Shown here: in pieces, positions 1-21,640 of the stretch
Layout: every line of letters starts with the position of its first letter
How positions within the stretch are numbered: position 1 is the first letter of the stretch
IMG/VR virus record: IMGVR_UViG_3300026157_000001
Coordinates: 4,770 to 68,769 of that record
Reading direction: 5' to 3' (one strand)
Source of the DNA: a virus
DNA length: 64,000 bases
The notes under the pieces: model-generated
Told to the model about the DNA's origin: nothing
The model's database searches: none
The model's input: the letters and a program-made list of their open reading frames with translations, nothing else
Position numbers and translations under genes: made by a program

Positions 1-1611
1 CTGACCTTTTCGGGCCTTGGCTTCGTTTTTAGCAGCCATATAATAAGAGGTAGGCGCTGCTAATAAAAAGGTTCCCAGCGTTTTTTCAAACGGGGAAGCT
101 TTGGACGCATGCTTAATATTAAAAATTTCTTCGTTAACCGGTTCCAAGGCTTCTTTTTGTTTATTCTCTATTGCTATGCCCATGCCTAATCCTGCTACAG
201 GTGCTATCCATGGATTCTTAGCTATAAACTTAGTGAAATTACTGACATTTGCACTGTTGCCAAATATTTTAGCATAACCTGCATATAGAGCTCCGACAGA
301 TGTCATTAAGGGGATGGCGTTTTTTACACCACTTCCTGCTGGTCGAGGCTCATCATCAAATAAAAGGCTATTTATAAAAGACTGTTCAATCTCTTGTCGG
401 TTAGGATATAACTCGACACCCTTACTTTTTATGTTAGCACTCTTCTCTATGATTCTATTAATAATAGCTGGTTTTGTCAAGGAAAACTTGGAAATATCCG
501 GTTTTATTTCGTTTGCAACCTTCTCATTTACATAATCAGGGCCGATATTATTGATCTCCGGTGCATCTTTTGGGCTGGTCTCGAAAACGAAACCTTTTTC
601 TTCCAAAAGTTTTGCCAGTTTTCTGTTTCCAGTTGTGTATAACGCGAGCTTTTGAAAATCCTCTCGTTTTGGGAGGATTCTTAAAGCACAAAATGTTGAT
701 AAAGTTTCGTTAAGCGGATACTGAGATAGCTTCTCGATCTGCTCATCTGTAAAATTTTCTTGTGAATCTAATATGATTCGTTTTGGGTCTTCTTCAATGG
801 CGTCTATTTCGCCGGCATTAATTTCTTTCTTAATTGAGGCATGCTTCTTATCTGACATTAAATTTGCGGCCTTCTCCATAGTTGCCTCGTTGTCGACTTG
901 TGCGGTCGCACCCGGTCCGGATGCATCTTCTGCCATTTTACCAAACCCAATAGGTGCCATAATTGCTGCCAGTGGATCTGCTGGAATAGTTACAATCGAA
1001 AGGTCAAAGAACCTAGGCTTTGTATTAATAGCATATACACGTCTACCGTCGTCAAGTATTTTGTTCATCTTGTTACGAAGATAGTCACTGTATTCTTTTC
1101 TAGTTCGTGCTTTCTTTCCTGTTATAGAGCATACGTCATAAGGTACTTTACATCCCATTGATAGTTTGATGTTCATGCCTTTTTTCATATTAGTCATTAA
1201 TTTACAAACGTCCGGGTGGGACTCTTGAAGTTTAATGACTGTCTCTACTCTTTTCATGTGAGGGTTATAATAAGAATAAATAACCTTGCCCATAGATTTT
1301 TTAGGATCTTTGTTTACATGATGTTTATAAACGTGACCGTGATCTACAAACGTATGGTGGTATTTTTTAAGAGCCTCTTCTGGAAAGAAGTCACCATTTC
1401 TATTTGGTCCATAATATTCTCCAGCTGTAAGTGCATTGGCTAATGCATACACGAATCCCGGCTCACGATCTAGTGAGTCAAGAAATTGGGCAACCTCGGA
1501 GGCGTATTCTGCTGTTTTGACTAAGCCCTCTGTTTTAGAAGGCTCTGGCAAAATAGAAAAAATCTCTTGGTCATCCTGTGTTTGGATATACTCAGCTGTC
1601 TTTTCTATCAT
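1..1611 (-). CDS. Putative prohead/head maturation protease (3' end runs off the window)
   Basis: Open frame from ATG at 1611, absent from the ORF track because it has no stop in the window. Reads MIEKTAEY...GPNRNGDFFPEEALK...HVYKHHVNKDP...LSMGCKVPYDVCSITG...FFDLSIVTIPAD, resembling large-phage prohead proteases. Lies near the terminase. Confidence 0.6.
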   Translation of the reverse strand, partial: MIEKTAEYIQTQDDQEIFSILPEPSKTEGLVKTAEYASEVAQFLDSLDREPGFVYALANALTAGEYYGPNRNGDFFPEEALKKYHHTFVDHGHVYKHHVNKDPKKSMGKVIYSYYNPHMKRVETVIKLQESHPDVCKLMTNMKKGMNIKLSMGCKVPYDVCSITGKKARTRKEYSDYLRNKMNKILDDGRRVYAINTKPRFFDLSIVTIPADPLAAIMAPIGFGKMAEDASGPGATAQVDNEATMEKAANLMSDKKHASIKKEINAGEIDAIEEDPKRIILDSQENFTDEQIEKLSQYPLNETLSTFCALRILPKREDFQKLALYTTGNRKLAKLLEEKGFVFETSPKDAPEINNIGPDYVNEKVANEIKPDISKFSLTKPAIINRIIEKSANIKSKGVELYPNRQEIEQSFINSLLFDDEPRPAGSGVKNAIPLMTSVGALYAGYAKIFGNSANVSNFTKFIAKNPWIAPVAGLGMGIAIENKQKEALEPVNEEIFNIKHASKASPFEKTLGTFLLAAPTSYYMAAKNEAKARKGQ

Positions 1612-2111
1612 TACATGAACAAGCTTCCAGCTCCTAATAGGTCAGCTCCTTCGTCTCTTCCCATGTTGTCTTCGATCTTAGCTAGGGTATCATAAGTATC
1701 TATAGTTGGTCCACCTAGATCTGGTCTGACTCGTGCATTAATGTTTTGAGTGATAAATCCGCCTGCTGCTATTGGGTCTCTGGCTAGTCGAGGTGAAGTT
1801 CTATATAGGGTTCCTCATAGCTCTGCTACTTCTTCTACATCCTCTTCCATTAGCGCTGGGTTGGCTTTTAACATTTCTTCAAAATATTTAGGCTCAATAG
1901 CTTTCATATACTTTCTTTCTACGAGCTCTGATAGCTTATTGGCAAAACGTGCTACTATAACAGCACCACCAATAATTCCCACTATTTTTAAAGCGTCCAT
2001 CGGAGATTTTCCGACCGCTGCCACCTTCTCGATGGTGTCTACACGCATTTGATGCGCTGCTGCTTTTTCGGCAGCTATTTTGATAAGTTCTTTTTTCTTA
2101 TTGATATCCAT
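1611..2111 (-). CDS. Hypothetical virion protein, 166 aa, one TGA read as Trp
   Basis: Frame continues through TGA 1815-1817 (AEL*GTLYRTSPRLARDPIAAGGF) to TAA at 1611, forming a TAATG overlap with the next gene. Confidence 0.8.
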
Positions 2112-3123
2112 AAGTTCTTTTTAATTTGTTTTGTAGATCAATCTTATTTTTGAATTGTGCTGCCGCTGCAAATTGTTTAGGGTTCTTACCTTTATAAAGG
2201 CCAATTCCATACATTCCACCACCTGCGGTAATAACAGGATGTTTTTTACCAAATCTAAGAAGATTTGCCAGCGCACCTGCTGCATAACCTAAAGAGGTTC
2301 TCGCTCTACCTAGTTTTTCCAAGGTTCCATCTTCTGGAATAAGTTCAGCAATTTTTTCATAATGGTCTTTATAGAATAAGGCTGTTACGCACTCATTGTG
2401 TAAGTCGTGGACTCTTTGGACCAATTTATTTTCGTTGTTAATTTTTTGGCCGGCATACTTCTCAAGGTCATTTCCTTTTATCTTAATGCCATCTTTGTCT
2501 AAATCGTGTGAGATTTCTTCTACTATATAATCTCCGAACTCAGACGCTTCTTTGATTGTATATTCTAGTGCTGCGGCGTCGGTGCCGGATAGGTAAGCTT
2601 GTTTTACTGTAGAGTAGATCGGCTGAAGCCTGCTTTCAATCCTAATGCCATTCTCTAGTACATTAGATTGTGCTATTTTTAGATGGGATAACAGGTCAGC
2701 TGTTTTGTTATAATTTTTCCAGGCTGGAATATCTTCTTCCTTTTCTGCAGTTTTCTCTTGCTTGGCTTCTTCATGTTTTTTGGAAGCTCTCTTCTCCTGC
2801 AGAAGTTGGTGAGCTCAGTCTTTTTTAGGAGCCTCTAAATAGTCTTTTCCTTTAGAAGCTGTTTTAGAGCTGGAGGGCTCTTCATCAATTACTTCATTAG
2901 GGTCGGCAACGTCAAACTCTATATAAGAGTCTTGGTCTGCTGTCTTCATAAGTTCTAGGTATGTTTTCACATTAGCAGCTTCCGCTACCCTGTGTACTTG
3001 ATTTTGATTTAACCCATGGAGTGTAGACACTTTTTCCAGTCCATCTGTAAGAGGGATCTGTCGGTCTAAGTATTCCTTAGATATTTGGGTTCCTAATTTT
3101 TCTAATTGTTCCGGCTTAACCAT
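2098..3123 (-). CDS. Hypothetical virion protein, 341 aa, one TGA read as Trp
   Basis: ORFs 2815-3123 and 2098-2424 share a frame, and the 130 codons between them are stop-free after TGA 2815-2817. Confidence 0.85.
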
Positions 3124-3128
3124 GCTTT

Positions 3129-3157
3129 AATATATTTTTATTGGCTGTAACAGTCAA
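3129..3157 (-). promoter_or_regulatory. Sigma70-like promoter, probably leaderless
   Basis: TTGACT-17nt-TATATT-5nt-ATG. Confidence 0.65.
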
Positions 3158-3160
3158 ATT

Positions 3161-4729
3161 TTATTGTAAATTTTCTCTCAGGCTGTCTGTCAACATCATT
3201 AGTGCCATGGAACCAAACAAGGTTGCATGCACAAAGTCGTCTGGGCCTACGTTAGTGTACTTTTCTTTATTCTTATCTTCGTCGTATTCTATAATTACGT
3301 TCCTAATGTCCGTAGTCATAGGCTCTATGTCCTGGTAATTAGGTAGGCGTAACTTCCCCTTTTTGAGCATTGTGAAGAATTTATTCATCACCCAGTTCTT
3401 ATTCATTGTATATGCTCGCATTTTAGGATTATACCTTACAGGCTCTTTTTGGGTAGGAAGATGTTGATAAGGCCATACCTTTTCTAAGCCTAACCTGTTT
3501 CTAAATTCACTGTTAGGCGCTTCTCCCATACCGTAGTCACTAGCTAGTAGTGAGCAGTTCCACTTTTTAAATATCTTTGGGATTTCTTCATGTATATACG
3601 AATAGTCTGCTTCTTTACCTAAAAATTTCTTAGCGTATACAACCTGTAATTTACCTTCCCTTTCTTGAACAATAGATATACAAGTATGAGATTTTTCCGA
3701 ATTTACCGGGCCATAGTCAATACCCATAATAGTAGGCCTGCCAACAGAATGTTTATCAGGGTTGGGGCTCATTCTAAAGTCTGGATTACAAGCCGCTATC
3801 ACTTCTTCTTTTGTAATTGGGATAGCTCCTGAATCATACTCTAGCCCTAGAGTCTCATTGTTAAACAGAGCGGTGCTCTGGTTTTCCATCTTGTAAATGA
3901 CGTCGTCTTGCCAATTAACCCATGGTGAGTGCGCAAAGTGTAAAAGACAAACTCGGTAGCCTTCCATTTTAGGCCTGTCTTTCATATGCTCATAAGTAGA
4001 CACCCACTGGCCTTTGGCCTTTCTAAGGTCTAGTTTGTTTCCGCACTTAGAGCAGATTAAATGATTAGCCCCTATATTATCCGGGCCTAGTATATTCCAG
4101 TGGTTACAGGCTTCACACTTTATCGCATACTCATTTTGTGAAGACTTAAACCAAAGATCTGCTAATGTGCCCTTTGTTCTTTTAGGTGTGCCTGCATATA
4201 TACTGCGCTTTGTTACTGAGCGTGACATTGTTTCCTCAATAACTCCTATAACGTCTTTTCTTAAATCCTGAGTTTCGTCAAATAAACAGACGTCTGAAGA
4301 AATACCTCGAATACGGTCAGCGTTAAGAAGTGCATAACGCATGTTAATAACGCTACCGTTCTTGAATTCTTTTTTAAATACGTTCTGCACCATATGTGCA
4401 TCAACGAAGTAGTCTCTTATAAGAGGTGAGTTTTTAATAACCGGTTCCAGTTTGTCACGAACAAACTCCTGAGTTTGAGCTACTGCAGGGGATACGTAAA
4501 GCTGTTTAAAGTTAGGCTTCATTAAAGCCCGGGCTAGGAGAATATTAGCTAAAGACGTACTTTTAGCGGTCTGTCTAGAAAATTTCATTACAACCTTCTT
4601 GGCTTCCGTATTATATATACGTCTCATATGAGGATAGTCGTCCAATGAAAATGGCTGACCTCCTAAATAGAAAAAATTCTCCGCAAAGTCACTGAGCGCT
4701 AGCTCAATTTGTTCCTTATCTTTGCCCAT
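3161..4729 (-). CDS. terL: Terminase large subunit (lambda gpA-like)
   Basis: KFSRQTAKST Walker A variant, LFDE Walker B, GTP motif, CxxC..CxxC zinc motif, and GIDYG...DD nuclease domain. Confidence 0.85.
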   Translation of the reverse strand: MGKDKEQIELALSDFAENFFYLGGQPFSLDDYPHMRRIYNTEAKKVVMKFSRQTAKSTSLANILLARALMKPNFKQLYVSPAVAQTQEFVRDKLEPVIKNSPLIRDYFVDAHMVQNVFKKEFKNGSVINMRYALLNADRIRGISSDVCLFDETQDLRKDVIGVIEETMSRSVTKRSIYAGTPKRTKGTLADLWFKSSQNEYAIKCEACNHWNILGPDNIGANHLICSKCGNKLDLRKAKGQWVSTYEHMKDRPKMEGYRVCLLHFAHSPWVNWQDDVIYKMENQSTALFNNETLGLEYDSGAIPITKEEVIAACNPDFRMSPNPDKHSVGRPTIMGIDYGPVNSEKSHTCISIVQEREGKLQVVYAKKFLGKEADYSYIHEEIPKIFKKWNCSLLASDYGMGEAPNSEFRNRLGLEKVWPYQHLPTQKEPVRYNPKMRAYTMNKNWVMNKFFTMLKKGKLRLPNYQDIEPMTTDIRNVIIEYDEDKNKEKYTNVGPDDFVHATLFGSMALMMLTDSLRENLQ

Positions 4730-4893
4730 CTCCTTTTTGCCTGTTTATGTGCTTCTCGTTTCTTGTCTGAGGGTTTGGTATAAAACTGATTTGATTTATA
4801 TTGCTCCAGGACCCCTGATCGTTGTACCTTACTCTTGAATATCTGTAGGGCTTTCTCTAGGTTCCCGTCCCTGACGTTTACTTTTACTGGCAT
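4699..4893 (-). CDS. rpsU: Ribosomal protein bS21
   Basis: MPVKVNVRDGNLEKALQIFKSKVQRSGVLEQYKSNQFYTKPSDKKR is a typical bS21 sequence. Confidence 0.92.
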   Translation of the reverse strand: MPVKVNVRDGNLEKALQIFKSKVQRSGVLEQYKSNQFYTKPSDKKREAHKQAKRRWAKIRNKLS

Positions 4894-5698
4894 CTTCTTC
4901 TAAATTTCGTTTTGATTTATACTCTAAAAGGTCCTTAAAGAACTCTCCGTTCTCGTCATATTGCAGAACTTTATAAATAATATTTTGTTTACTGTTCCTG
5001 CCCGGACCCCAGTCAGAAGAATACGCAATTTTTCTGTCTTTATCAACTGATTCTACAAAATCTAAAGCATCTTGGAAAAGTGTCCTAACTTTTTCTTTTT
5101 GTCTTTCTACTTTATAATATTCAAATAAAGATTCTCTAGGATTGTTTTTAACCATACTAGAAAGCTTACGCTTCTCTGTTAAATAATCTTTTACAAGTTT
5201 ATTGAAATGTCTTACTTTAGCGTCAGCCACTAAGAACTCTGACCAGAACTTGGCGTATGTTGGTGCCATGTCTTTTCTCTCTGGTGGTTCGTTTAGCCAT
5301 TCATCTTCCATGACATCATAAACGCCGAAGTCAATAGAAGCTAAATTTTCTGCTGTGTCTTTTCTCCACTCAGCTAAGAAATAACTTATCACACGATTAG
5401 TGCCTTTTGCTATTCGTCCGTTATATTTTTTAGCTCCGTGAGTCTTTGATTTCCCGGGCTTAAGGCCTTCGATGGCAACCATGATATCAATATCACTTGT
5501 ATCACTGTATTTATAGCCCGTTAATGAGCCCAACATATAAACTCCCCTTAAAGGCCCGTCTCCAGCATCTTCAGCAATTTCTTTTGCGGTAGTTAAAGCT
5601 TGTCTACGGATCTCCGGATACATCTTCTTGTCTTGATTCCAAATGTCTGGAGATAATGAATCCCTGAGTCTTTCTATTACACTAGCTGGTTTATACAT
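4829..5698 (-). CDS. Pol-beta superfamily nucleotidyltransferase
   Basis: LGSLTGYKYSDTSDIDI matches the hGS..DxD motif. Confidence 0.75.
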   Translation of the reverse strand: MYKPASVIERLRDSLSPDIWNQDKKMYPEIRRQALTTAKEIAEDAGDGPLRGVYMLGSLTGYKYSDTSDIDIMVAIEGLKPGKSKTHGAKKYNGRIAKGTNRVISYFLAEWRKDTAENLASIDFGVYDVMEDEWLNEPPERKDMAPTYAKFWSEFLVADAKVRHFNKLVKDYLTEKRKLSSMVKNNPRESLFEYYKVERQKEKVRTLFQDALDFVESVDKDRKIAYSSDWGPGRNSKQNIIYKVLQYDENGEFFKDLLEYKSKRNLEEDASKSKRQGREPRESPTDIQE

Positions 5699-6524
5699 CG
5701 TCTTCGTTTTCTACCTCTTTAATATGTTCAATAGGTTTCTCGTCTGTAGAGAAAGTCTTAATTTTAAATTCAAAGTCTTCAAGAATGTTGTCGGCGTTTG
5801 CTCTTTTGTCCTTCTCTATAGTATCGATACGGTCGGTAACCTTAATGGTTAAGTTAGCCCAGCGTTGTGCAACATCTGGACGTATCTTACTTTGCTCTTT
5901 AAAGTTATAGTAAGAGTCTTGAGCAATATCCCGTAGCATGTCTGCAAAATCTTTTTCAGGAGTTACTCCTAATTTCCATAATAGATGCTGCTTATCTCCT
6001 TTTAATGCAATCTTATAATATTTGCGAAGCTGTGGCTCGTTAATACCCTTTACATAGTTTTGACGATCTTTTAAGGTCCACTCAGAAACGTTAAAGAAAT
6101 ATTTAAGAAACATCTTAACGTCATCAGAGGAATACTCCATATTATACTTACCGTTGACGATAAGTTCTATATCTTCGTCTGTAATAAGGGCCAGGGCCAT
6201 AGATGTGATAAGACGGTACATCAGCGGGTCATTTAAAATCTTGATGGCACCGTCAAGGCTCGGGGTGTCTTCCGGGAAATCGAAGTTAGTAAAATGGACG
6301 AAACCTTCTACAACGTCGTGATCTCTTATTCAATCTGGGTCCGCGGGTTCTGGGTTCTTCCTGTCAAAATACTCTGGAGCCTGGCTACGTAATGTATCAT
6401 ATACAATTGTTATAGCCTTTTGTGGAATAGGCTGATCGTAGTCTTCTAGTTTTTCTATCAATCCATCAACTGAAAACTTAGATATTACTAAGGTTTCAAT
6501 AAACTTTAAATGTGGTATTTCCAT
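5691..6524 (-). CDS. Hypothetical protein, 277 aa, one TGA read as Trp
   Basis: ORFs 6330-6524 and 5691-6221 join in frame through TGA 6330-6332 (DPD*IRDHDVVEGF). Confidence 0.85.
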
Positions 6525-6775
6525 TATTCTTCGTCTTCTGTGCCGAATTTAATATAGTATTCTAGCGCTTTCTTTGATGGCATCGCTTTCATAGAAGCGA
6601 TATAAATTAAATCATTGGTTACTGGCTGTTGCCAATGAAGCTGGAGATCTTCTCCTGAGTCACCGATCATCTGCTCTGTCTCACATTCATACTCGAATCC
6701 GAGGATAGTCTGTAGTTTTTGAGCTAAGTCGTTATAGCGCTCTGTTCCGGGATGTTCGATAACTATCGTTCTCAA
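6524..6775 (-). CDS. Hypothetical protein
   Basis: ORF with a TAATG overlap to the downstream gene. Confidence 0.7.
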   Translation of the reverse strand: MRTIVIEHPGTERYNDLAQKLQTILGFEYECETEQMIGDSGEDLQLHWQQPVTNDLIYIASMKAMPSKKALEYYIKFGTEDEE

Positions 6776-6779
6776 TTTA

Positions 6780-7121
6780 TTAGTCCTTCATTACTAATGC
6801 AGTTCCGCCAACGCCCGTACCGGCAAGAATTTTGCCTCGGTTCTCGTATACTTTTTTACCTTTGTTATATAAAGCTTTTTGCTGTTGTGACGTATGCCCA
6901 GCTGTGACTCCGGCAGGTGTTCTTCTAGCAGATGAAACGCCTTTACCGGTAGCTCCTGCATAAAGCGCTTTGCCTTTAGAGCCTAATTCGTCGCTCAAGC
7001 CTTTAGTCTTGGTTACAAGCCTTGACAGAGTTTTTAGGCCTCCACTCCAAAGAGCTTTCTTTTCAATACTATCTGAGAACCCTTTCATTGCAATAATTTT
7101 TTCTTCGTGTGATAAATCCAT
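6780..7121 (-). CDS. Small basic protein with EKKA motif and C-terminal Gly-rich helix
   Basis: ...FSDSIEKKA|LWSGG...ILAGTGVGGTALV. Confidence 0.7.
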   Translation of the reverse strand: MDLSHEEKIIAMKGFSDSIEKKALWSGGLKTLSRLVTKTKGLSDELGSKGKALYAGATGKGVSSARRTPAGVTAGHTSQQQKALYNKGKKVYENRGKILAGTGVGGTALVMKD

Positions 7122-7146
7122 TTTTCTATCTTTTATATTTTAGTAG

Positions 7147-7995
7147 TTAAACGTTTGAGGGACTAATCATAGAATTGCTTAGTCGCCGTGTACTGTTTCG
7201 TGTTCCTTTTTCTAAAGTCGTTTTTGTAATCTTAGGTGCTGCCATAGTTGCGCCTATAGAGGTTGTTGCTCCACCCATAAAACTTTTGTTTTTTATAGCA
7301 CCTTTAAAGCCTCCCAGGCTTTTAGTCCCTGTAAAAGTGGCTCCTCTAGCAAAGTTACCTAAATTTATATTTTTTAAAGACTTGAATGCCTTTATACCTA
7401 AATTCAAAATGCCCCCTATAGCTGCTGTCTTTTTAATCTGAGTCGGGCCATAGTATTCTTTTCCCCGGCCAATATTAATTGGGCGGTGAGTTCAGCTTTT
7501 AGTTAGATACTCGATCGCATCGGAAGTAGGCATCCGCCTACTTCTACCAAACTCTGCGGGATCCGCAGAGTGGTATAACTTTGGCAAAATTTTAGAAGCA
7601 TTTGGGTCTGTTTTAATAGGAATGAGAGCTGCTGTTTTCTTTTGCTCTTTTTCTATTTTATTGGCTGCTGCCATAAAAACAGGATAACCGATGGCTCCTG
7701 CAGCTGTACTTTTTATAAGCCGAGGGCCTGTTCCTCTGTATAATGTTTTCATTGTTTTAGCATCTGGGCGCAGGTCTCTTAATTTTATTTTCTTTCCAAA
7801 GTCTGTATTAGCCTGGGCGTCTACAGCAATGGTATCAAGGGGTTGAGTTGTTAGTGTAACTGCTGCGCCTGATAGACTCCCTGCCATGAAGTCTTTCTTA
7901 AAATCTTTCCAAAACTTTTGTTTAGCCTTCTCTTCTGGTGTGAGCTCAGGCTTGGTAATTACTACCGGTATTGGTTTTTGTTTGTCTTTTTCCAT
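7147..7995 (-). CDS. Modular protein with a mitochondrial-carrier-like repeat, 282 aa, one TGA read as Trp
   Basis: ORFs join through TGA 7492-7494. Contains FMAGSLSGAAVTLTTQPLDTI..Q and LYRGTGPRLIK. Confidence 0.75.
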
Positions 7996-8321
7996 TAGTT
8001 CTTAAAAAATCTTATATTTATCTCTTCGTCGTCTGACTTAAGCATTTCCCAAGTCTGCTTTGTGCTATAGTCCAGTGCGGTATAGAACAATGTCTTAAAC
8101 TCAATATACTCCATATCGGCTGTTAAAATATCTCCGTCTAGTGTGAATACATCTGTCCACTTATCTCCAAATTCCGAAGGTTCAAATCGTATGATCTCCT
8201 GCGTACTTAATGATATAGGTCTTCGCACTGAAGGGTTAATATCACTTAAGTTCATTAAGAAGTCTTCTAAATCTTCGTACTCGTCCGGGTCTGCACTAAT
8301 TGATATAAAGTCTATAAACAT
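7995..8321 (-). CDS. Hypothetical acidic protein
   Basis: ORF with a TAATG overlap. Confidence 0.7.
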   Translation of the reverse strand: MFIDFISISADPDEYEDLEDFLMNLSDINPSVRRPISLSTQEIIRFEPSEFGDKWTDVFTLDGDILTADMEYIEFKTLFYTALDYSTKQTWEMLKSDDEEINIRFFKN

Positions 8322-9582
8322 CGCCTTCGTTTTTCATGGAGTCTTTAGCTAGCTGTGAAATAATTTTGTCTTTAATTGCATGCTCTTTTAAAGCCGGTGC
8401 AAGTCCTAGTGTTGGAATTCCAGTTAAATACGGATGTTTTAAAATAAAAGAATCAGACTGATGCTGTCCGATACTACGTCTTACAAACTTCTCTTTATCT
8501 TCGCCGAGGTTATAGTTGCCACCCAGTCGTTTCTCTATGTCTGATACGTCTAAGGCTCCTTTCTTAACAAGATTTTTTACCTTTCCGGAATCCTTTAGAT
8601 ATTGACCTCCTACAGCAGTTAGTCCTGCACCTAAGCCTACTGTACCTCCAAAAGCAGCTCCCTCTGCAATTTCTTTTGCTGTGGGGCCGTTATCGGGTAG
8701 CTTTGGGTTTAAGGCTGTAGCAATTCCTCCTGCTGCGGTACCGCTTAGGGTAGTTGTAGCAATTATTTTTGCTGGGCTAAAGCTGGCTTCTTTAATTTTC
8801 TTTGCTGCAAATGGGGTAGCTGCTGCTCCGCCTAGGCCTATTCTAGCTGACCATGTTTTAAAGCCTTCTTTCCAAACCTTTCCTCTGGCCTCTTCCCAAG
8901 CTTTTTCGGCATCTTTATTTGTCTTTCTGGCTTTTTGCTTAGCTCCGCCGGAAGCCTCTTCTAGTTTTTTAGAGGTTTCCGTTAAACGCTTTCCCAGCGA
9001 ATCCATCTGACCTTTTGCTGCTTTATAGTTTGTTCCCTTTATAGCAGACCATAGGCTTGATGTTTTAATAACTCCTTCGCCCTCTAATATTCTAAGCTTT
9101 GCTCCTAATGGAAATCGCGGATCTTGTAACATTCCTCTGACCACATTAGACTCACCGGCTCGATAAATTTGTTTTGCTTTTTGTTTAACAATCTTTTGGT
9201 CTTTCTTTTTTGAGTCATAAATCTCTTTAGCTCCAACACCTGCTCCAACGGCTACCGGTGTTGCCACGGCGGCTTGTGCCATTCGTGTACTCTTCTCAAT
9301 ATTCTTAGCAGTGCCTTCCATTTCAGCAAGATCTTTTTTGTTTTTTCTAAGATCTTTTAATTTTTGAAAGGTGCTACGGTCATCAACAGCTATTTGATTT
9401 TTACCTAGCTCTTTGGCTTTTGCCCCTTTAGGGACATCGTCCATTTTTCTAACCGTCTTTTGGCCTATAAACCACGGGTTATCTACTTTTCGCTGTAAAG
9501 CTTGGCCCCTTACTCTTGCATTTCGTAAAGTCTCCCCACGAATTAAATCGTAGGCTCCTTTAGCTTTTACTTTTAATCCCAT
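8296..9582 (-). CDS. Basic Gly/Ala-rich modular virion protein
   Basis: Several Gly-zipper segments and IKTS/IKEAS/VKKG motifs. Confidence 0.7.
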   Translation of the reverse strand: MGLKVKAKGAYDLIRGETLRNARVRGQALQRKVDNPWFIGQKTVRKMDDVPKGAKAKELGKNQIAVDDRSTFQKLKDLRKNKKDLAEMEGTAKNIEKSTRMAQAAVATPVAVGAGVGAKEIYDSKKKDQKIVKQKAKQIYRAGESNVVRGMLQDPRFPLGAKLRILEGEGVIKTSSLWSAIKGTNYKAAKGQMDSLGKRLTETSKKLEEASGGAKQKARKTNKDAEKAWEEARGKVWKEGFKTWSARIGLGGAAATPFAAKKIKEASFSPAKIIATTTLSGTAAGGIATALNPKLPDNGPTAKEIAEGAAFGGTVGLGAGLTAVGGQYLKDSGKVKNLVKKGALDVSDIEKRLGGNYNLGEDKEKFVRRSIGQHQSDSFILKHPYLTGIPTLGLAPALKEHAIKDKIISQLAKDSMKNEGDVYRLYIN

Positions 9583-9911
9583 TATTTAAAATACCTCTGG
9601 CCTTTATCGTTTATTGGTTTTGCATAGCTTCCAATTAGATTTGTATCTATGCCTTGTTCTTGTAGCGCTCGTCGTCGTCTAGCCGCTCTTCCTACATAGT
9701 AAGAACTTGTTGCAGCTGCTCCTCCTGCTATAAGAGGGAGAAACCCTCAAGGCTTGACAGGGTTAGATAAACCTGCTGCTACTCCAGAAGCCGCTAGTGA
9801 TTCTATGATAGACCTCTTCCTATGCTCTTCTAGTAAATGTGGATTCTCTTTGTAATGCTTGAACAGCGCTCTGTCCATCGCATCCAATTGGCGTCGTTGT
9901 GAATACTGCAT
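9582..9911 (-). CDS. Hypothetical membrane-associated protein, 109 aa, one TGA read as Trp; missing from the ORF track
   Basis: MQYSQRRQ...NPVKP*GFLPLIAGGAAATSSYY...RYFK with TGA at 9747-9749. Fills the gap exactly, with a TAATG overlap and an upstream promoter. Confidence 0.8.
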
Positions 9912-9916
9912 GCTTA

Positions 9917-9945
9917 AACATACTTACTATAGATTAAATTGTCAA
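9917..9945 (-). promoter_or_regulatory. Sigma70-like promoter, probably leaderless
   Basis: TTGACA-17-TATGTT-5-ATG. Confidence 0.6.
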
Positions 9946-9946
9946 C

Positions 9947-9965
9947 TTTTTTGGTATAAGAATAC
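9947..9965 (+). promoter_or_regulatory. Repeated plus-strand promoter motif TTTGGTATAAGA
   Basis: One of 10 copies, each upstream of a plus-strand gene block. Confidence 0.65.
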
Positions 9966-10054
9966 TGATCAGCTTTAAAAAACAACTAAAATCACCGATA
10001 GGAGGTAGACTGTGTAAACATGACTAACCGATCCATCCAACAAACGGGTTTTTA

Positions 10055-10444
10055 ATGCTTCGACTTGAAGACGTAGAGAAAATATTTATTGAGCTGGAAC
10101 GCCTACATTTTTTAGGCTCCAGTGAAGATGAAGAGTTTCTTAAGATGGTTTTCGAGAACGCATGTACGCAAAAGAAGGTCAGCCCTTTAGAGATCGAAAT
10201 GACTTTCGACAGAGTAGGGTTTATGAACATCTATGGAAAAATAGTCAACTTTAAAATATCGTCTAGTTATGATAGCGCTGAAAAAGCTGACGAGGTAATA
10301 AAGCGAGTGTACAAACGGCTATACAATTCTAGAGGTAGGCATAATATTATGGCACTGATGCCTGATGAGCCACGGCCTGTAAAATTCGAAGTTCTGGTCG
10401 CAGAATGGGATATACATAAACTTAAAAGTCTAGAAAAAAGATAA
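10055..10444 (+). CDS. Hypothetical protein (single plus-strand island in the late region)
   Basis: ORF bounded by the promoter motif and a terminator. Confidence 0.7.
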   Translation: MLRLEDVEKIFIELERLHFLGSSEDEEFLKMVFENACTQKKVSPLEIEMTFDRVGFMNIYGKIVNFKISSSYDSAEKADEVIKRVYKRLYNSRGRHNIMALMPDEPRPVKFEVLVAEWDIHKLKSLEKR

Positions 10445-10445
10445 A

Positions 10446-10500
10446 AGGGAGGGAGGTCATAATAGCTAAATGATCTCCTCTTTTTTTTAGCTTAAGATTT
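10446..10500 (+). terminator. Bidirectional intrinsic terminator followed by AGCTTAAGATTT
   Basis: GGGAGGGAGGTCAT...ATGATCTCCTCT stem plus T8 between convergent genes. Confidence 0.7.
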
Positions 10501-13075
10501 ATCTAACCTTAGACCAAACTTTTGCCGCATCTTGCAGCTTGATACGTTTGTTATTTGTTACAGCATCTGTCATCTGTTTTAGAACAGAATCTTCTTTGAA
10601 GTCGGAGCCTTCGACTATAGTCTTAAAGCGTTTAGTGACCTCTTTTTTAACTTCGGGGTCATACAGCCTTCCAGCTTTGCCTTTAGTTTTCTTCATGATA
10701 AACTCTCCAATGTCTTCAAAGTCTTTTGCATACTTTTCATCTCCGGAGATTGCAAGTTCACTAAGTTCAAAGAACTTTTTGGATAAATTCGGGTCACCGT
10801 GCATAGCGGGGTTAAACCTGACTTCAGTAGCAAGATTTCCTTTCTGTGGTTTCCAGGATTTCTTCTTATGGCTGGTAAATCCTATTTTAGATTTTTCTGT
10901 CAAAGCGTCTTCCCCATCGTTAGCCCATATTCTAGCATTAGGTACATCCCCACCAAATGATATAGAGGCGTTATGTGATTTATACCCTTTTGCTCGATCT
11001 TCAGCCCCAGGTACTAAATAGTTAAGTGACGCTGTAGCTCCTACCACACGTTTGATAACTTTGTCCATCTCTTCTGGAGGTGCTTGAAAATGTAAGTGTG
11101 ATGAGGCTCCTAAGCCAACTCCTTTTTTAGTTGTGTCTGCATAGGTTAAATTTGTCAACTTGCTGCCTTTAGGGAGTTTCATCTGTTTTGAATACCCTTC
11201 AGTTATAGCGTCTCCTACGCCTTTATAAAGGTCATCTGCATTACCCGGCTTAAGTTGGACTTCAATACCGCCAGCAGTTTGGTCTCTAATAATAGAATAT
11301 CTTTTACCTTTTGCAGCAACCGTTTTAGTTCCTTCATCTCCATAAACATTTTGGGCATATACTCTATTTTTATTCTGATTTAAAACCTGAATCTCAGAAT
11401 CGTCGCCAAAAGTAGGGCGGCTATCTTTCCCTCTTAAGTAATTACCTAACGTTTTATTACTTTTCCTGGAAAACTCTACACCGTCAGGATCTTGAGCTAG
11501 AATCTTATCTAGATATTTTGGTTCTACTGGAATTCGTCCTGTGTTTGTGCTTCTTGTGCTCTGTACAAGCTTATTTATTTCTTTCTCTTTTTCAGTATAA
11601 GGGAGCATGTGGTAAACACCTGCTCCAGTCGCTATACCCCCTGCTGCAGAACCTCCTGCAATTAAAGCGTCTTTTTGATTTTCGGTAAGTTTTTTAGCCT
11701 CACCCAACTTTCTAAAAAATCTGTCTGCATTGTCGTATATTTTTTCTGCATAATTTTTATCGACATACGCTATATTTTTTCTAAACTCTCTATTGTTTAA
11801 TAAATGCTTTAATCCTTTATAACCACCAAAACCAACCCCTGCAGACGTAGTGGCTATTAGGGAATTTCTTAAAAGTTTCTTTTGCCTATCAGATAATACA
11901 GGTTCCTCTTTTTTTGCTGCTGAGCGTTTTTCAAGTAGCTTTGTAGTTCCTACTGCTGAAGCTCCTGCTGCTCCTACTCCGTATAAAGCCGGGGCTAGTG
12001 TGGTTTTTTGTCCTGTAATTTGATTTAACATATCTTTTTTATCTGCGGGGTTTAAAAAGTTGAATGACCTTCCGGAGTTCGTATTACCTTCGATAACTTT
12101 GAATTTACCGTCTTTTGTTTTTGCGATATCAAATCCTATGATATAATTCTTGTCGTCGAGTCCTTTTTCTTTTAAGTCTTTCTGTAGAAGCTTATTAAAT
12201 TCTTTACTATCGAAGCCTTTTATTTTGTCTATATCTTTGGTAGTAGGGACACCGTGTCGAGAGGTGGCCTTGTTTGAAAGTTCTCCCCCTACTGCATGCA
12301 TCCTATATTCTTTTTTAATGTCTAGTTTGGGTTGAATTATAAATTCATCTTTCTCTAATCCCTCCCTTAAAAGCTTCATACCAGGAGTACCTTTATACTT
12401 AAACTTGGCCAGATCTTCTATTGGTGCATAAAGCCCTTCACTTCTTTCGCCGTCTTTAGGCTTAATAAAACTGTTTGGTGCTTTCTTTTTTAGAGCTGTT
12501 TGTATTTGCTCGTCTGTCATTTTTGACGATATACCAAGCTCTTTTAATGTTTTTGATTCTAGCAGATATGGGTTTAGGTTTTTAGCTTTACCAGCTTTAA
12601 TATCCATATTTACAAACTGATCGTAATCTTTTCCTTGACGTGCTGAAGTGTTTACAAACGTGCTGTCTCCGCGTATGTTTTTCCCTGACGCATCAATAAC
12701 AACGCCTTTTAACTTTGTGTTTCTTTTTATTTGTGAAGGGTTTACAACGTCTACACCTTTATAACGGATGTTTCTGTAAGCACTTAACCCTTTGTCCCAA
12801 GCTAGATCTATAATATTCTTTTTGCCGTCCGTAGTTTTTAACTTATCGGAAACCGCTCGGAGTTTGTTCGGCATAACTTCAAAAGGAAAGTCGTCTACAA
12901 TCGTCACCTTTCCGGTGCTTTTATAGACGTCTTTAGCTTTTCTAAGAGCTTCTGTCTTTGGTACTGCTTTAGGTTTTCTTGTAGCTAAAAAAGTTCCTGC
13001 ACTTATTGCTGCGCCGACTCCGGAGCTAATCAACAAGTTCTCTTTTCTTTTCTGCTTATCTGTTTTTTCGCTCAT
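10499..13075 (-). CDS. RimK-like ATP-grasp plus amidoligase-like (COOH-NH2 ligase) polyprotein with Gly-zipper helices
   Basis: ATP-grasp motifs FIKPKDG..IIQPK..EYRMH..GFDI..VIEGNTNSG. Second module GIEVQ..SSHLHF..TEVRF. Confidence 0.7.
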   Translation of the reverse strand: MSEKTDKQKRKENLLISSGVGAAISAGTFLATRKPKAVPKTEALRKAKDVYKSTGKVTIVDDFPFEVMPNKLRAVSDKLKTTDGKKNIIDLAWDKGLSAYRNIRYKGVDVVNPSQIKRNTKLKGVVIDASGKNIRGDSTFVNTSARQGKDYDQFVNMDIKAGKAKNLNPYLLESKTLKELGISSKMTDEQIQTALKKKAPNSFIKPKDGERSEGLYAPIEDLAKFKYKGTPGMKLLREGLEKDEFIIQPKLDIKKEYRMHAVGGELSNKATSRHGVPTTKDIDKIKGFDSKEFNKLLQKDLKEKGLDDKNYIIGFDIAKTKDGKFKVIEGNTNSGRSFNFLNPADKKDMLNQITGQKTTLAPALYGVGAAGASAVGTTKLLEKRSAAKKEEPVLSDRQKKLLRNSLIATTSAGVGFGGYKGLKHLLNNREFRKNIAYVDKNYAEKIYDNADRFFRKLGEAKKLTENQKDALIAGGSAAGGIATGAGVYHMLPYTEKEKEINKLVQSTRSTNTGRIPVEPKYLDKILAQDPDGVEFSRKSNKTLGNYLRGKDSRPTFGDDSEIQVLNQNKNRVYAQNVYGDEGTKTVAAKGKRYSIIRDQTAGGIEVQLKPGNADDLYKGVGDAITEGYSKQMKLPKGSKLTNLTYADTTKKGVGLGASSHLHFQAPPEEMDKVIKRVVGATASLNYLVPGAEDRAKGYKSHNASISFGGDVPNARIWANDGEDALTEKSKIGFTSHKKKSWKPQKGNLATEVRFNPAMHGDPNLSKKFFELSELAISGDEKYAKDFEDIGEFIMKKTKGKAGRLYDPEVKKEVTKRFKTIVEGSDFKEDSVLKQMTDAVTNNKRIKLQDAAKVWSKVR

Positions 13076-14348
13076 TAATTTTTCTTCTGGTAAACTCTGC
13101 TGCTGTTCCTGTTCCGCCTATACCCAAGCCAATTTTAGCTGCTGTGGGGCTATCTAACCTTCCGGTTAATTGTCTGTATTGCATCTTGGGGCTTTTCTCA
13201 AATGTTCCGGGCTTAAATTCGGGTCCTCCTTTAGGTACATATGCTCCCCAAGAACCGCTGTTATCATTAATTTCAACTATATGTTTTTTACCAGTTTTGC
13301 TATCCACTAATACATCGAGGCCCAGGATCTGATTTTTAGCGTCTCCTTTGGTAGACTTGCTGTAATTTTTCATAGCTTTCTGTACATAGGCTTCTAATTC
13401 AGGATTATCTTTTTTGACATTAATCTCCTCGCCTATTGTCTTTTTACCATTTATCTGTTTTACATAGCCCTGTGTTGTAGAAGCTTTGCCGCCTTGTAGG
13501 GCAACATGCACTCTATACTCTTTATCACCTTTTATAAGGTCTTGTGCTATATAAGATTTCGGATTGTCCGCTAAGGTTTCTAAGTCTTTTATAGTCTGTT
13601 TTTTTAATTTGCCAGGATTATTTTTATATAAATCTGCAAACTCTTTTAGCTTGTCAGGTTTGCCCTGGAAGCCTGCGCCAAACCCTTCGCCGCCTCTCAT
13701 CTTAATAAATACTTTTTCTCCCTGAACCGCATCTGCGATAGAGTCCAGCTTTTCGGCCTTGCTCATATCTGCATAATTTTTTCCTGTTCTTTTTGTTTTG
13801 TTTTTCAAAACATCTGCTACCAGCCTAGACTTTGGAGTATACCCCTCAAATTCTTTCATTTGGGAAAAAGTATATTTGTCTTGAAGCTTGTCTAAGAATT
13901 CACTCTTATCTTTGTTATAAATAATATCCGCTTCTACTTTATAGTCTGGTTGTTTCGCTTTTTGTGTAAGTGTGCCTACACCGGTTTCTTTAGTTGGTGA
14001 CCAGTCTGGATGGTTCATAGCAACATCGTCATAGACGGTCCCTCTCATCTTTGTACCCTTAGGTATTTTATTGGCTTCGACCTGTCGTATACCTGCCTGG
14101 CTGTACCAGTTTTTAAGTTTGTCCAGCGGGTTTTCCGATGTTAGTCCTCTAACGTTATAATCGTCCCCGGAAGCAGTTTCTGAAACTATTCGGGTAACTT
14201 TGCCTTTGGACATTTTTTGTGCTTTACGTACTTCTGGTATCTTAGACAATAACCATGGAGCTTTGGACACTCCATAAGCTCCTGTTCCAAGAGCTGCGCC
14301 TATACCCAAAGATTTTAAAAGTTTTTTATCGTCTTTTTTATCTGCCAT
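13056..14348 (-). CDS. RimK-like ATP-grasp protein with terminal Gly-rich helices
   Basis: VFIK..GG.G, YIAQDLI..EYRVHV, LGLDV, IVEINDNSG. Confidence 0.75.
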   Translation of the reverse strand: MADKKDDKKLLKSLGIGAALGTGAYGVSKAPWLLSKIPEVRKAQKMSKGKVTRIVSETASGDDYNVRGLTSENPLDKLKNWYSQAGIRQVEANKIPKGTKMRGTVYDDVAMNHPDWSPTKETGVGTLTQKAKQPDYKVEADIIYNKDKSEFLDKLQDKYTFSQMKEFEGYTPKSRLVADVLKNKTKRTGKNYADMSKAEKLDSIADAVQGEKVFIKMRGGEGFGAGFQGKPDKLKEFADLYKNNPGKLKKQTIKDLETLADNPKSYIAQDLIKGDKEYRVHVALQGGKASTTQGYVKQINGKKTIGEEINVKKDNPELEAYVQKAMKNYSKSTKGDAKNQILGLDVLVDSKTGKKHIVEINDNSGSWGAYVPKGGPEFKPGTFEKSPKMQYRQLTGRLDSPTAAKIGLGIGGTGTAAEFTRRKINERKNR

Positions 14349-16332
14349 CGTCCGTCATGTTATAGCCTATTGCTCCTGCGCCTACAGCTCCAGTAACACC
14401 TGCAGCCCCTAGTAACGCTTTTGTTTTAGCATCCATAGAACCTTTTGGTTTGTCGCTTGATTTAGCTTTAGGTGTTTGTGTTTTCTTGGACGTAGTTTGT
14501 TTTTTAACTTTTTCTATCGGGGAAGATTTTCTAGTTACTTCCATTTTTGGTGCATTCTGTATATTAGCGGGGCGTCCCGGGGCTCTCTCAATTGTTGTCT
14601 TTGCTCCTGTAGACGTTGGTGCTACGCTACCTGTTTCTACTGCAGCGGCGTTTCCTGTCCTAGGTTTAGACTTAGTTTGAGATGCTCTGGAGCCCATATC
14701 TCTTAATCTCTTTTTGGGTGATGGTTTTCTTCAAGGTGTACTCCTGCGCCTAACAGCGTCAACTAAGTCATCAACCCCACTTATAGCGGTCCTCGCTTTA
14801 GCAAACTTTCCTAAAAAATGCGCATTCTTTTCTTCTGGTAATCCTTTATGCTTTGTTTCTGCATAATCTTTACTTTCAGACTTTGTCATGCTCTTTGCCA
14901 TAGACTTTATTTTCTTTTGCAAGCTGGGATCCAGTTCGCTAAAATTATCTAGCTCTCCGTTTTGGTATGCATGTACCATGCCCATTAAGCGCTGCTGAGA
15001 TTTGCTCTTAGCCTCGCTTGTCTTTGTAATAGTGTCTCGTACTTTCATAAACGTTTGTGCAGCTGCTGGATTGTTGGCCATTATTTCTGGCGACATATCT
15101 TCCACTTCTTTCAACAGCTTAGCTCGTTTAGGGTCATTCTTTGACATCCCCAAAAGCTTTGTAAGCTTATTATCCATGTTTTTTAAGACTCTCACGCTGC
15201 CACTTTTTTGTAGCATTGGCGCTAGTTGAAAAGCTGCTTTGTTTAGGTTTTTCATCTTAGGAAGCTTATTCATCTTTTCTAATTCCTTTCTCTGCTTTTT
15301 TGCCATCTCCTGCAATTGAGAATTTGTAGGGTTCGAAAGATCTTTGTCCAGAGTTGTTAAATTCTGTTCAAGCTGAGTGCTTCCTTTTGTTGCTATTTTT
15401 TCCGAGTTATACTTATGTGACTCGGTAAATAAATTGTGAATTGCTTTTTTTGCAGTTTTACTTAATTCCATTGTGGATAGTTCTGTATTTAAAATTTTCT
15501 CGCTTTTCTTTACAAGTTGAGGACGGTATTTTGTTTTCTTATAGCTATCACTTGATGGCTTGTTGCCTTGCTCGTCAACCCTTAGTCATTTACCGGTTGA
15601 TATTGTTTTCTCTTCATCGGCTGTAGCGGCTCGGCGTTTTGTTTGTTTGCCGTAACCTTTTTTCTTTTTTCCTTCTGCTCCTTTCGGTACTACCTCTGGA
15701 GTTGAACGGTTTGCATAAAAGATGAGGTCATGTTTGCTTTCGGCATTCTTTTTAAATACAACTCGTTGATCAGTATCTATCTCGTCTAATACTTGAGAAG
15801 TTGCGGCGTCATATTTTTTAAGGGTTTTGCTTCCTCGTCGTTTAGCTAACCCTCCTCCTAAGATACCGCCGACTGTAGCACCTATTGGTGCTGCAACAAG
15901 GCCCTGCGCTACTCTATTACCCTTGCCTGCAAATGCTCCTGTTAAAAGTGCTGTACCCAAACCTGAGCTAAACGCTGAGCGTCCGGCACTTGACCAAGCT
16001 TGATCACTGACGCGATCTTTTATAGCTTTTCTGTTAAGGGATTGTCGTTCTTTAAATTTCTTTTTTATATATTCTTTATTTTCCGGACTGGCTACAGAAA
16101 AGTCGCTGTGCTCTTTAAGCATGTCGAAGTTGGGTGAGCCTCTTTCGGCTATTAAATATCTATCATCTAGTAAGGCTTTCTTCTCTAGGCTCGCTCTTTT
16201 ACTCGCCCAAATGGCCCGTTCTTGTTTTAACGCGTCCTCATAGCTGTCATGTGTCCCAAGAACTTTTGTCTTCTTGGAATTATACAGTTTATACTTTCCG
16301 TCTTCTTCTACAATCTTGGCTGTCTTTTTCAT
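14338..16332 (-). CDS. Modular virion protein, 664 aa, two TGAs read as Trp
   Basis: Three track ORFs share a frame and join through TGA 15586-15588 (STGK*LRVDEQG) and 14731-14733 (STP*RKPSP). Confidence 0.8.
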
Positions 16333-16341
16333 ACCTTAAAT

Positions 16342-18024: not shown

Positions 18025-18455
18025 TACTTAATTACTTTTAAAATATCTTTGAGTGTTTTTGCTCCATAAGCAGACTTTGTACTGCTGATCGAAGATGTTA
18101 TGTGATCTACTCCCCGGCCTGCTCTCACTAACGGATTCATATTCTTTTGTGACTTTCTAAGTTCTGACCTGCTCGCAGACATCTCATTTAAGAACGTGTC
18201 TTTAACGCCTCTTAATGATTTCTCTTGGGTCCTTGGATACCTTCCCTTTTCTTTATTGATATAATGGGTTAGCTCGTGACGTAGAATTTTGCGTTCTCCG
18301 CCTCTAGAAGTTACGGGGTCGATATCTACCCTTCCTTTCGTACCAGCGTCCGGCACAAACTGACCTCGGCGTCCTCCGGGCAATGCACGGTATTGTACGA
18401 GGGGTCCGGCCGCGTTCTTTTCAAGTAGATAATCTACCGGTGTGACTTTGTTCAT
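18024..18455 (-). CDS. Small HExxH metallopeptidase-like protein
   Basis: ILRHELTHY with a downstream E; N-terminus DYLLEKNA. Confidence 0.65.
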   Translation of the reverse strand: MNKVTPVDYLLEKNAAGPLVQYRALPGGRRGQFVPDAGTKGRVDIDPVTSRGGERKILRHELTHYINKEKGRYPRTQEKSLRGVKDTFLNEMSASRSELRKSQKNMNPLVRAGRGVDHITSSISSTKSAYGAKTLKDILKVIK

Positions 18456-21400: not shown

Positions 21401-21640
21401 CCTTATAACCTTTTTATCTTCTACTTTTTTCGTTTGAGGATTAAAAGATTTTACTAAATCACCTATTTTTATGTCTCTAATATACTTTAGAGTGTTATCT
21501 GCCATTTTAACGCGAGCAGAGGGCATGAAACATCCAGCCCGTTCAGCATCGTGCTCCTGCAGATTTAACTGCCAGGTAGCATTCTCTGCTCTTGGTATAG
21601 ACGTTTTTTGTTTTTTATCTGGTATTCCTGGTGCGTACAT
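18455..21640 (-). CDS. LigD-type 3'-phosphoesterase + ATP-dependent DNA ligase with intein and Gly-zipper tail, 1061 aa precursor, three TGAs read as Trp
   Basis: PE motifs QEHDA..H.DLRL..S*ALPKG..LAVRQPDH..YMG*SGTI..GYGKG. Ligase motifs PKLDG, SELF, FDV, EGLVV, KVK and OB-fold IGTGLSD. TGAs at 20345, 20261 and 18857. Confidence 0.85.
20399..21532 (-). mobile_element. Intein with LAGLIDADG homing endonuclease (378 aa)
   Basis: Starts CFMPSARV and ends FDLEVEGNHNYFISGILVSN with +1 Ser. Has block B TPNHKI and the motifs LIGSLLGDS and WFMDDG. Confidence 0.92.

Follow-up and report, generated by a model that had tools for sequence, protein, structure and literature searches.

A late gene of a tailed phage predicted to encode a one-repeat protein of the mitochondrial carrier type

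The 64,000-nucleotide stretch of viral DNA analysed here (the window), which spans positions 4,770 to 68,769 of IMG/VR record IMGVR_UViG_3300026157_000001, contains on its minus strand a gene whose product carries one repeat resembling those of the mitochondrial carriers (SLC25 family). These carriers are regarded as an innovation of eukaryotes that arose via triplication of a two-helix unit. In this study, sequence comparisons showed residues about 28-115 of the phage product to be, almost certainly, one true repeat of the SLC25 fold, related to the carriers by descent. Moreover, the gene is conserved, single-copy and late, and is co-transcribed with the head and packaging genes of the phage. 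The reading proposed here, in which a conserved late protein with one carrier repeat assembles in a membrane and acts as a passive pore or as an aid to membrane thinning or insertion, was assigned as a whole a probability of about 0.5.

A preliminary description of this DNA, made from the letters alone, had placed a single SLC25-like repeat at 7650..7895. The peptide in question (FMAGSLSGAAVTLTTQPLDTIAVDAQ ... KTLYRGTGPRLIKSTAAGAIGYPVF) was found there as residues 36-107 of the product P0001, encoded by nt 7675..7890, and the position given had been correct within about 25 nt. In a Pfam-A search, the 167-aa open reading frame (ORF) matched Mito_carr (PF00153) with an E value of 3.4e-7 and 30.3 bits over profile positions 3-85 of 96; the score lies above the gathering score of 22.3, and the proposed repeat is therefore genuine by this search. 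The profile PF18405 (SLC25_like) gave an E value of 0.027 with P0001, which was under its own cut-off. When the complete record (68,769 nt) was searched in six frames, one PF00153 place was found, at the carrier-like gene, and the same search matched 0 of 14 control genomes. The repeat is composed of an odd-type helix (H1), a basic loop with an equivalent of the matrix helix and an even-type helix (H2), whose limits are given in Table 1.

A phmmer search with P0001 against 1.84 billion cluster representatives (E<=1e-3) returned 70 proteins, 15 of which were short proteins with one carrier stretch (query included) and 55 were longer; in P0008 and P0014 the stretch was split into two matched pieces. 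Two further one-repeat members, P0002 and P0005, were obtained from a word-index search, which gave a one-repeat family of 17 proteins, all from metagenome assemblies, and a word-index search with the family profile yielded no additional one-repeat member. PF00153 matched 16 of these 17 proteins at E<=0.01 (best 1.7e-12). Moreover, a profile of the phage family (alignment A1) retrieved seven sequences at E<=1 from all PDB chains, and all seven were mitochondrial carriers, namely UCP2 (4.7e-5), the bovine ADP/ATP carrier (4.3e-4), yeast AAC2 and AAC3, UCP1 (twice) and a fungal AAC; in this search the pre-helix segment F-x-K-D-F-x-A-G was aligned with the N-terminus of repeat 1 of the bovine AAC. 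Alignment of the family with 33 canonical carriers by hhalign gave a probability of 98.8% and an E value of 7e-17 over 86 columns comprising both helices and the loop. A hidden Markov model (HMM) built from the phage proteins alone found exactly three repeats in 45 of the 55 longer proteins; of the other ten, five gave two repeats, four gave four and one gave six. With an HMM of the carrier repeat, the real domain scored 67.2 bits, whereas 1000 shuffled sequences had a mean of -2.6 and a maximum of 7.3 bits, the reversed sequence scored 2.6 and the top score among 127 other ORFs of the record was 5.5. The distance between the real domain and its shuffles ruled out composition as the cause of the match. 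The top identity of P0001 to any canonical carrier was about 27-32%, and the best canonical match, P0011 (5.4e-11), shares a 90% cluster with a protein of Phaeocystis antarctica.

The stand-alone architecture with one repeat is very probable. Each protein of the family holds one repeat, seen as one stretch in most members, and each of five related records gave one PF00153 match in the six-frame search (3 of the 5 above the cut-off), in place of the three tandem repeats that define SLC25; no paralogue of the repeat domain was found among the ORFs of the window's record. Outside metagenomes, tblastn found no relative of P0001 among 50,697 GenBank phage records, and the window had no DNA-level match to GenBank phages. 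Against the PHROGs, P0001 gave just four matches, at E 0.16-0.32. The genomes of 185,579 prokaryotic species were scanned twice with patterns, which detect only sequences that retain the chosen short patterns, and revealed no relative. Full-text searches of the literature listed no phage protein described as having a single carrier repeat; the only phage paper found that names a carrier does so for a BLAST match in phage FNU1 (E 8.5). P0066, a protein of 103 aa encoded on a metagenome contig of 21.6 kb, represents another kind of one-repeat carrier protein that stands alone; its even helix is nearer to the canonical motif, and it lies outside the phage clade in the repeat tree.

The product of the gene is probably 282 aa long, because the TGA that terminates the 167-aa ORF is a codon read as Trp in the late genes of this phage. 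The two closest homologues, P0002 and P0003 (273 and 263 aa), read ...LTKS-W-THRPIN... across the TGA site and run on for about 100 residues beyond the Trp, matching the next ORF of the window (7147..7407). In the late block, 12 in-frame TGA were present in 8 ORFs (1611..21640, minus strand). Of 32 positions at which late-gene TGA could be aligned with relatives, 18 had Trp encoded by TGG in the relative, five had Phe and nine had other residues, and at two late-block TGA sites all six relatives had Trp. Furthermore, the homologues of the carrier-like gene at the related loci L003 and L005 contain two in-frame TGA of their own, one of which lies opposite a TGG in L008. In the record region L012 (G000 1..6500), two upstream ORFs were observed to differ between translation tables 11 and 4, and one of them, of 268 aa, holds five in-frame TGA. 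On the plus strand, several genes end in TGA within an ATGA overlap onto the next start (27986, 51832 and 61602), which suggests that TGA may still stop early genes; retention of the stop in early genes is described for recoded phages (10.1101/2021.08.26.457843). No suppressor transfer RNA (tRNA) was found in the record or in the scanned portions of three related records. The only tRNA of those portions was tRNA-Lys(UUU), whose presence agrees with the abundance of Lys in the late proteins. If TGA did act as a stop in the carrier-like gene, the product would be 167 aa with the repeat and without the tail.

The preliminary description was thus right about the repeat and missed the continuation of the gene past the recoded TGA into a basic tail of 115 aa. 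Used alone as a query, this tail retrieved no paralogue but did match the homologues at L003 (E 8e-8) and L004 (E 1e-7). Two copies of the motif K-x-A-[AS]-hydrophobic, here KKTA-A, are present in the carrier-like protein, and most of the long family members have one where the tail begins; its raw count in the late block was 8 matches in 7 of 23 late proteins. These occurrences gave no support to release of the repeat at a KKTA site, as suggested in the preliminary description, and the motif may be a cleavage site or a helix cap.

The carrier motifs were defined after the carrier literature and were counted in the alignment of the 17 members. In H1, A38, G39 and G43 were invariant and positions 40 and 42 were small in 17/17. 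T50 was likewise invariant, P52 was present in 14/17 and D54 in 16/17, so that the P-x-[DE] kink is preserved, and Gln at +9 (Q61, the glutamine brace) was found in 17/17. The K/R at +5 of P-x-[DE]-x-x-[KR], which takes part in the matrix salt-bridge network, was found in 0/17, with A, T or I instead, and the basic residue at +7 was K/R in 13/17 and Asp in the window's protein. The earlier statement that the Lys and Arg of the charge pair are replaced agrees with the sequence PLDTIAVDAQ of the window's protein, which has A at +5 and D at +7. At the end of the loop, position 86 was aromatic in 15/17 (Y86 here), position 87 was K/R in 10/17 (Ser in 6) and G88 was present in 15/17; the loop-helix motif [DE]-G-x4-[YWF]-[KR]-G had no conserved [DE]-G upstream, and the loop varied in length, being very short in P0010, P0013, P0020 and P0026. 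Basic residues at 92 (R/K) and 95 (K) were found in 17/17. The small face of the even helix was formed by A99 (15/17), G100 (15/17), A101 (17/17) and G103 (16/17), and Y104-P105-x-F107 was conserved. For the cytoplasmic network, [FY]-[DE]-x-x-[KR], the aromatic residue was kept in 17/17, the acid in 0/17 (M, T, G or K) and the K/R at +4 in 3/17. As judged from this alignment, the helix-packing faces and the kink are kept, whereas one partner of each gating salt-bridge network is lost.

The contig is, by its gene content, that of a tailed phage; the preliminary description had spoken of a phage protein. The large terminase subunit (TerL) is encoded at 3161..4729 (phrog_675, E 1.6e-69; Pfam GpA_ATPase), and a major head protein (phrog_2522, E 1.6e-13) is encoded upstream of the window in the same record and in the same strand block as TerL. 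The cluster of the carrier-like protein also occurs on a contig of 216,352 nt, and the phage is accordingly one of a clade of uncultivated jumbo phages. Identity of TerL to that of any isolate phage does not exceed 27%, and hence no host could be read from it. The carrier-like gene is syntenic in 6/6 related viral loci, which amount to about three lineages besides that of the window (L003 and L005 are near-copies, as are L004, L006 and L007), and lies 2.5-3.3 kb upstream of TerL; the homologues share 33-38% identity with the window's protein. The carrier-like gene shares one base of its ATG with the TAA of an acidic ORF (TAATG), and a homologue of this ORF is located directly upstream of the carrier-like gene in 5/5 loci of sufficient extent. 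In 5/6 loci, the interval between the carrier-like gene and TerL contains homologues of the ORFs of 83, 277, 289 and 64 aa; L008 has no match to the 83-aa ORF, and its 289-aa homologue is located upstream of the carrier-like gene.

On this basis, the following mechanism is proposed. The full product would comprise the carrier repeat, a middle region and, past the TGA read as Trp, a basic tail rich in Gly and Lys. H1 and H2 may form a membrane hairpin, and several copies may pack via their conserved small-residue faces, which resemble those joining the three domains of a carrier. Three copies could rebuild a six-helix barrel, in which three Lys95 and three Arg/Lys92 would face the centre. The cytoplasmic membrane of the host would be the site of action of the assembly, either late in infection or after delivery with the virion, and neighbouring basic proteins with Gly-zipper-like segments are possible partners. 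A membrane homo-oligomer is put forward tentatively, at slightly less than even odds, and the specific number of three subunits must be considered doubtful. An alternating-access exchanger is unlikely on sequence grounds, because none of the 17 members has either the positively charged residue of the matrix gate or the acidic one of the cytoplasmic gate. More likely than an exchanger is a passive pore or leak, or an aid to membrane thinning or insertion.

Several points weigh against this reading. Both salt-bridge networks are incomplete (K/R at +5 and acid after F107 each in 0/17), which makes carrier-like transport doubtful. In a Kyte-Doolittle scan with a 19-residue window, H2 alone reached at least 1.0 (1.23) and H1 stayed below 1.0; all three flanks of the helices are rich in Lys and Arg, which renders membrane insertion and topology in a bacterium uncertain. 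No lysis, transport or metabolic gene that would suggest a role adjoins the carrier-like gene. Furthermore, all records are fragments (9-38% complete; 35% for the window's record according to CheckV), so that more repeat genes elsewhere, and hence a hetero-oligomer, are possible. Finally, the canonical carriers used for hhalign, for the repeat counts, for the shuffle HMM and for the tree described below were chosen by their phmmer likeness to the query; the Pfam matches of P0001 and of the family and the PDB profile search are free of that choice.

To place the repeat, a tree was built from 107 repeats over 96 columns, comprising three repeats from each of 30 of the 45 three-repeat carriers and the 17 one-repeat proteins. 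The preliminary description had pointed to a phylogeny of the phage homologues. In the tree, 16 of the 17 one-repeat rows formed one clade (SH-aLRT 98, stem of 0.76 changes per column), with P0066 apart, and the tree did not place this clade relative to repeats 1, 2 and 3. The clade fell in an open group with 22 repeat-1, 9 repeat-3 and 2 repeat-2 rows. In approximately unbiased (AU) tests, which covered repeats 1 and 2, forcing the phage clade with repeat 1 cost 31.0 log-likelihood units (lnL; p-AU 0.115) and forcing it with repeat 2 cost 1.05 lnL (p-AU 0.486). Neither placement was rejected, and the data therefore agree both with an age before the triplication and with capture from one carrier repeat. 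It is improbable that the phage family represents a surviving one-repeat, homotrimeric stage and that the three-repeat SLC25 proteins of eukaryotes descend from a phage or mobile-element gene.

The alternative that survives best, although it is itself doubtful, is that a fragment of a eukaryotic carrier was captured and that the single repeat serves as an anchor or packing module for the basic tail, with no barrel being formed. The Myb-like domain is typical of eukaryotes, and BCS1 is best known as a translocase of the mitochondrial inner membrane; domains of both types are encoded in the window. Carriers are otherwise eukaryotic, and the known bacterial cases are, according to their abstracts, three-repeat Legionella proteins that act in a eukaryotic host (PMC3252375, PMC5621508). 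The degraded state of both gating networks, the match of the pre-helix segment to the bovine AAC and the free tree, which groups the phage clade with 22 of the 30 repeat-1 rows in the open group, also agree with capture. However, the phage clade showed no supported nesting in any carrier subfamily on its long and well-supported stem, identity to canonical carriers was low at best, and no repeat was favoured by the AU tests. In addition, the motifs for packing between domains are invariant, which would be unexpected for a mere anchor, and the BCS1-like AAA protein belongs to an existing phage family without assigned function, phrog_7485 (E 1.6e-65), and is therefore no sign of recent transfer from eukaryotes. 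A weaker AAA match was seen in 1 of the 5 related records.

An ejection protein that is packaged in the virion, as one of several basic late proteins with Gly-zipper-like segments, and lines or forms a DNA conduit in the host envelope is an unlikely possibility, slightly behind capture, and would be compatible with the membrane assembly proposed above. The gene sits in the head and packaging block and is transcribed with TerL and the head genes, and its neighbours fuse Gly/Ala-rich segments to enzymes that would be useful at entry (ATP-grasp, ligase, and M48-like plus ParB-like domains). The K-x-A-[AS]-hydrophobic motif could be the site of a maturation protease, but its figure is a raw count only and no prohead protease was recognised in the block; nor was there similarity to known ejection proteins among the four PHROG matches, all of them weak.

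Holins are small late membrane proteins encoded beside the endolysin. Two hydrophobic helices, a long basic C-terminal tail, the status of a late gene and the leak expected of a gateless barrel would suit a holin-like protein of the two-helix type with a charged C-terminus, which lyses or depolarises the cell by holes at the end of infection. This is quite improbable for the carrier-like protein, which is neither small nor beside a recognised endolysin: 282 aa, or even 167 aa, exceeds the usual size of holins, H1 is weakly hydrophobic, the gene is located among head genes, and scans of 48 proteins, those of the flanking genes included, revealed no lysin domain, endolysin or spanin. The last alternative, a convergent Gly-rich helical hairpin without common descent with carriers, which the preliminary description had named as the case that would refute it, would draw on the abundance of Gly/Ala-rich hydrophobic segments in the neighbouring proteins, and thus in this phage, and on the single-sequence phmmer search of P0001 against the PDB, which was not significant (UCP2 E 0.25), but it is close to refuted, since PF00153 had no match at E<=0.01 in 18 other late proteins of the block, the real domain scored far above other ORFs and shuffled or reversed sequences, the match takes in non-Gly positions of the helices and loop (P, D, Q, Y-R-G, P-x-L and K), and the Pfam and PDB profile matches are independent.

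The block upstream of the carrier-like gene (8296..21640, minus strand) encodes basic proteins (K+R 17-20%), and at least eight other proteins of the block carry Gly/Ala-rich hydrophobic segments, several of them fused to enzyme-like domains (Table 1). These proteins may be packaged or membrane-targeted cargo. The 1061-aa ligase protein was also observed to contain near its N-terminus an intein (Hint, Intein_splicing) with a LAGLIDADG endonuclease, and it ends in two Gly-zipper-like hydrophobic segments. Counts of promoters (17 vs 13.4 +/- 4.0) and terminators (4 vs 5.6 +/- 2.2) were not above those of shuffled sequences; the sequence TTGACA-17-TATGTT at 9945..9917 (minus strand), just upstream of the start at 9911, is a consensus match only. 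The primase-helicase type with BT4734-like and DUF5906 domains is known from Bacteroides elements and possibly gives a hint to the host. All public sequencing runs that hold window positions 6500..9000 were labelled soil metagenome; 99-100% of the sampled words of this segment were present in three runs, from which the sequence may derive, and 26-39% in three other studies, and no RNA run was among the public runs containing it.

Table 1. Coordinates of the carrier-like gene, its parts and other features of the window
Feature	Position	Strand	Remarks
Carrier-like ORF, product P0001	7492..7995	-	167 aa under table 11, with TGA as stop
Full carrier-like gene, TGA as Trp	7147..7995	-	282 aa (probable product), very basic, K+R 18%, D+E 7%
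In-frame TGA, codon 168	7492..7494	-	probably Trp; aligned with W in P0002 and P0003
Mito_carr (PF00153) repeat, residues 30-107	7675..7908	-	Pfam-A match, six-frame search
Odd-type helix H1, residues 36-61	7813..7890	-	A-G-S-L-S-G (small-G-small-x-small-G), then P52-L-D54 ... Q61
Basic loop with matrix-helix equivalent	7726..7812	-	ends in Y86-R87-G88; family alignment
Even-type helix H2, residues 91-111	7663..7725	-	P-R-L-I-K95 ... A-A-G-A-I-G-Y-P-V-F
First KKTA motif, aa 119-122	7630..7641	-	directly after H2
Second KKTA motif, aa 188-191	7423..7434	-	start of the Gly/Lys-rich tail
C-terminal tail after TGA	7147..7491	-	115 aa, basic; conserved blocks N-F-x-R/K-G and G-[TA]-[ST]-[IV]-G-A ... 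L-E
Acidic protein	7995..8321	-	108 aa, D+E 23%; directly upstream of the carrier-like gene
ATP-grasp protein (R2K_3)	within 8296..18024	-	858 aa; domain scan
M48-like peptidase with DUF5662 (E 2.1e-15) and ParB-like end	16342..18024	-	560 aa; domain scan
DUF3008 with C19orf12-like glycine zipper	within 8296..18024	-	664 aa; zipper E 2.4e-4, under cut-off
Three proteins with similar Gly/Ala-rich segments	within 8296..18024	-	428, 430 and 109 aa
LigD_N phosphoesterase with ATP-dependent DNA ligase	18455..21640	-	1061 aa, three TGA as Trp
Myb-like DNA-binding domain protein (PF00249)	22848..23234	+	128 aa; E 1.8e-8, above cut-off
Stand-alone DUF5662 protein	23234..23743	+	169 aa; E 1.5e-37; second DUF5662 of the window
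UvdE UV-endonuclease	40825..41541	+	E 2.8e-42
BT4734-like N-terminal domain with DUF5906	43028..45511	+	primase-helicase type
BCS1-like AAA ATPase	54326..55627	+	BCS1_N 38.9 bits (cut-off 28.1), AAA, AAA_lid_BCS1
NT5C-like nucleotidase fused to cREC_REC domain	61602..62549	+	

The phage family is, by its sequence, a member of the carrier repeat superfamily. Its likeness to SLC25 proteins such as the bovine and yeast ADP/ATP carriers and UCP2 extends over the odd helix (small-G-small-x-small-G, the P-x-D kink and Gln at +9) and over the even helix, which has P-x-L, a basic position and a face of small residues; at the end of the loop helix, the aromatic-[KR]-G of carriers is kept in part of the members. 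Unlike SLC25 proteins, which contain three repeats per chain, the phage protein has one repeat, is encoded by a tailed phage and continues after the repeat with a non-carrier extension of 170 aa. The family moreover lacks the K/R of the matrix salt bridges and the acid of the cytoplasmic network in all members. It is therefore not a member of the SLC25 transporters as these are defined, because neither the three repeats nor both gates are present.

Other carrier-family sequences are encoded outside the nuclear genomes of eukaryotes. The carrier of mimivirus has three repeats and acts in eukaryotic cells. LncP and Lpg1137 of Legionella pneumophila are described in the abstracts as bacterial SLC25 homologues with six transmembrane segments that function in the eukaryotic host (PMC3252375, PMC5621508). 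Whereas these Legionella proteins are, by the same abstracts, full-length, the phage protein has one repeat and comes from a virus of prokaryotes. Outer-membrane insertases of the MTCH2 type are derived from carriers and have given up gated transport; according to the abstract, a hydrophilic groove became open to the lipid when a helix was lost (PMC12934571). By analogy, an incomplete barrel of the phage protein could work similarly, although the MTCH proteins keep a body derived from three repeats and are holozoan. A 2026 preprint states that SLC25 shows no trace of prokaryotic ancestry or known prokaryotic homologue, and it proposes CysZ and YihY as bacterial homologues of the ADP/ATP carrier from fold likeness, circular permutation and a motif; phages, viruses and one-repeat proteins have 0 occurrences in it (10.64898/2026.03.31.715626). 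CysZ and YihY, as presented there, and the phage family both bear on prokaryotic relatives of SLC25, but the phage family matches the carrier repeat directly by sequence whereas the proposed likeness of CysZ and YihY is based on fold.

In conclusion, a natural and conserved protein with exactly one carrier unit exists in viruses of prokaryotes. The one-repeat intermediate that has long been assumed is now directly testable for three-fold assembly and conduction, and the one-repeat sequences can be used to polarise phylogenies of the carrier repeats. The phage family also shows what the carrier fold can do without the two salt-bridge gates. If the repeat is a captured fragment, the family would document gene flow from eukaryotes to a soil jumbo phage and the reuse of a carrier domain as a module. 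If instead a surviving one-repeat stage were true, a supposed eukaryotic innovation would acquire a root in viruses of prokaryotes.

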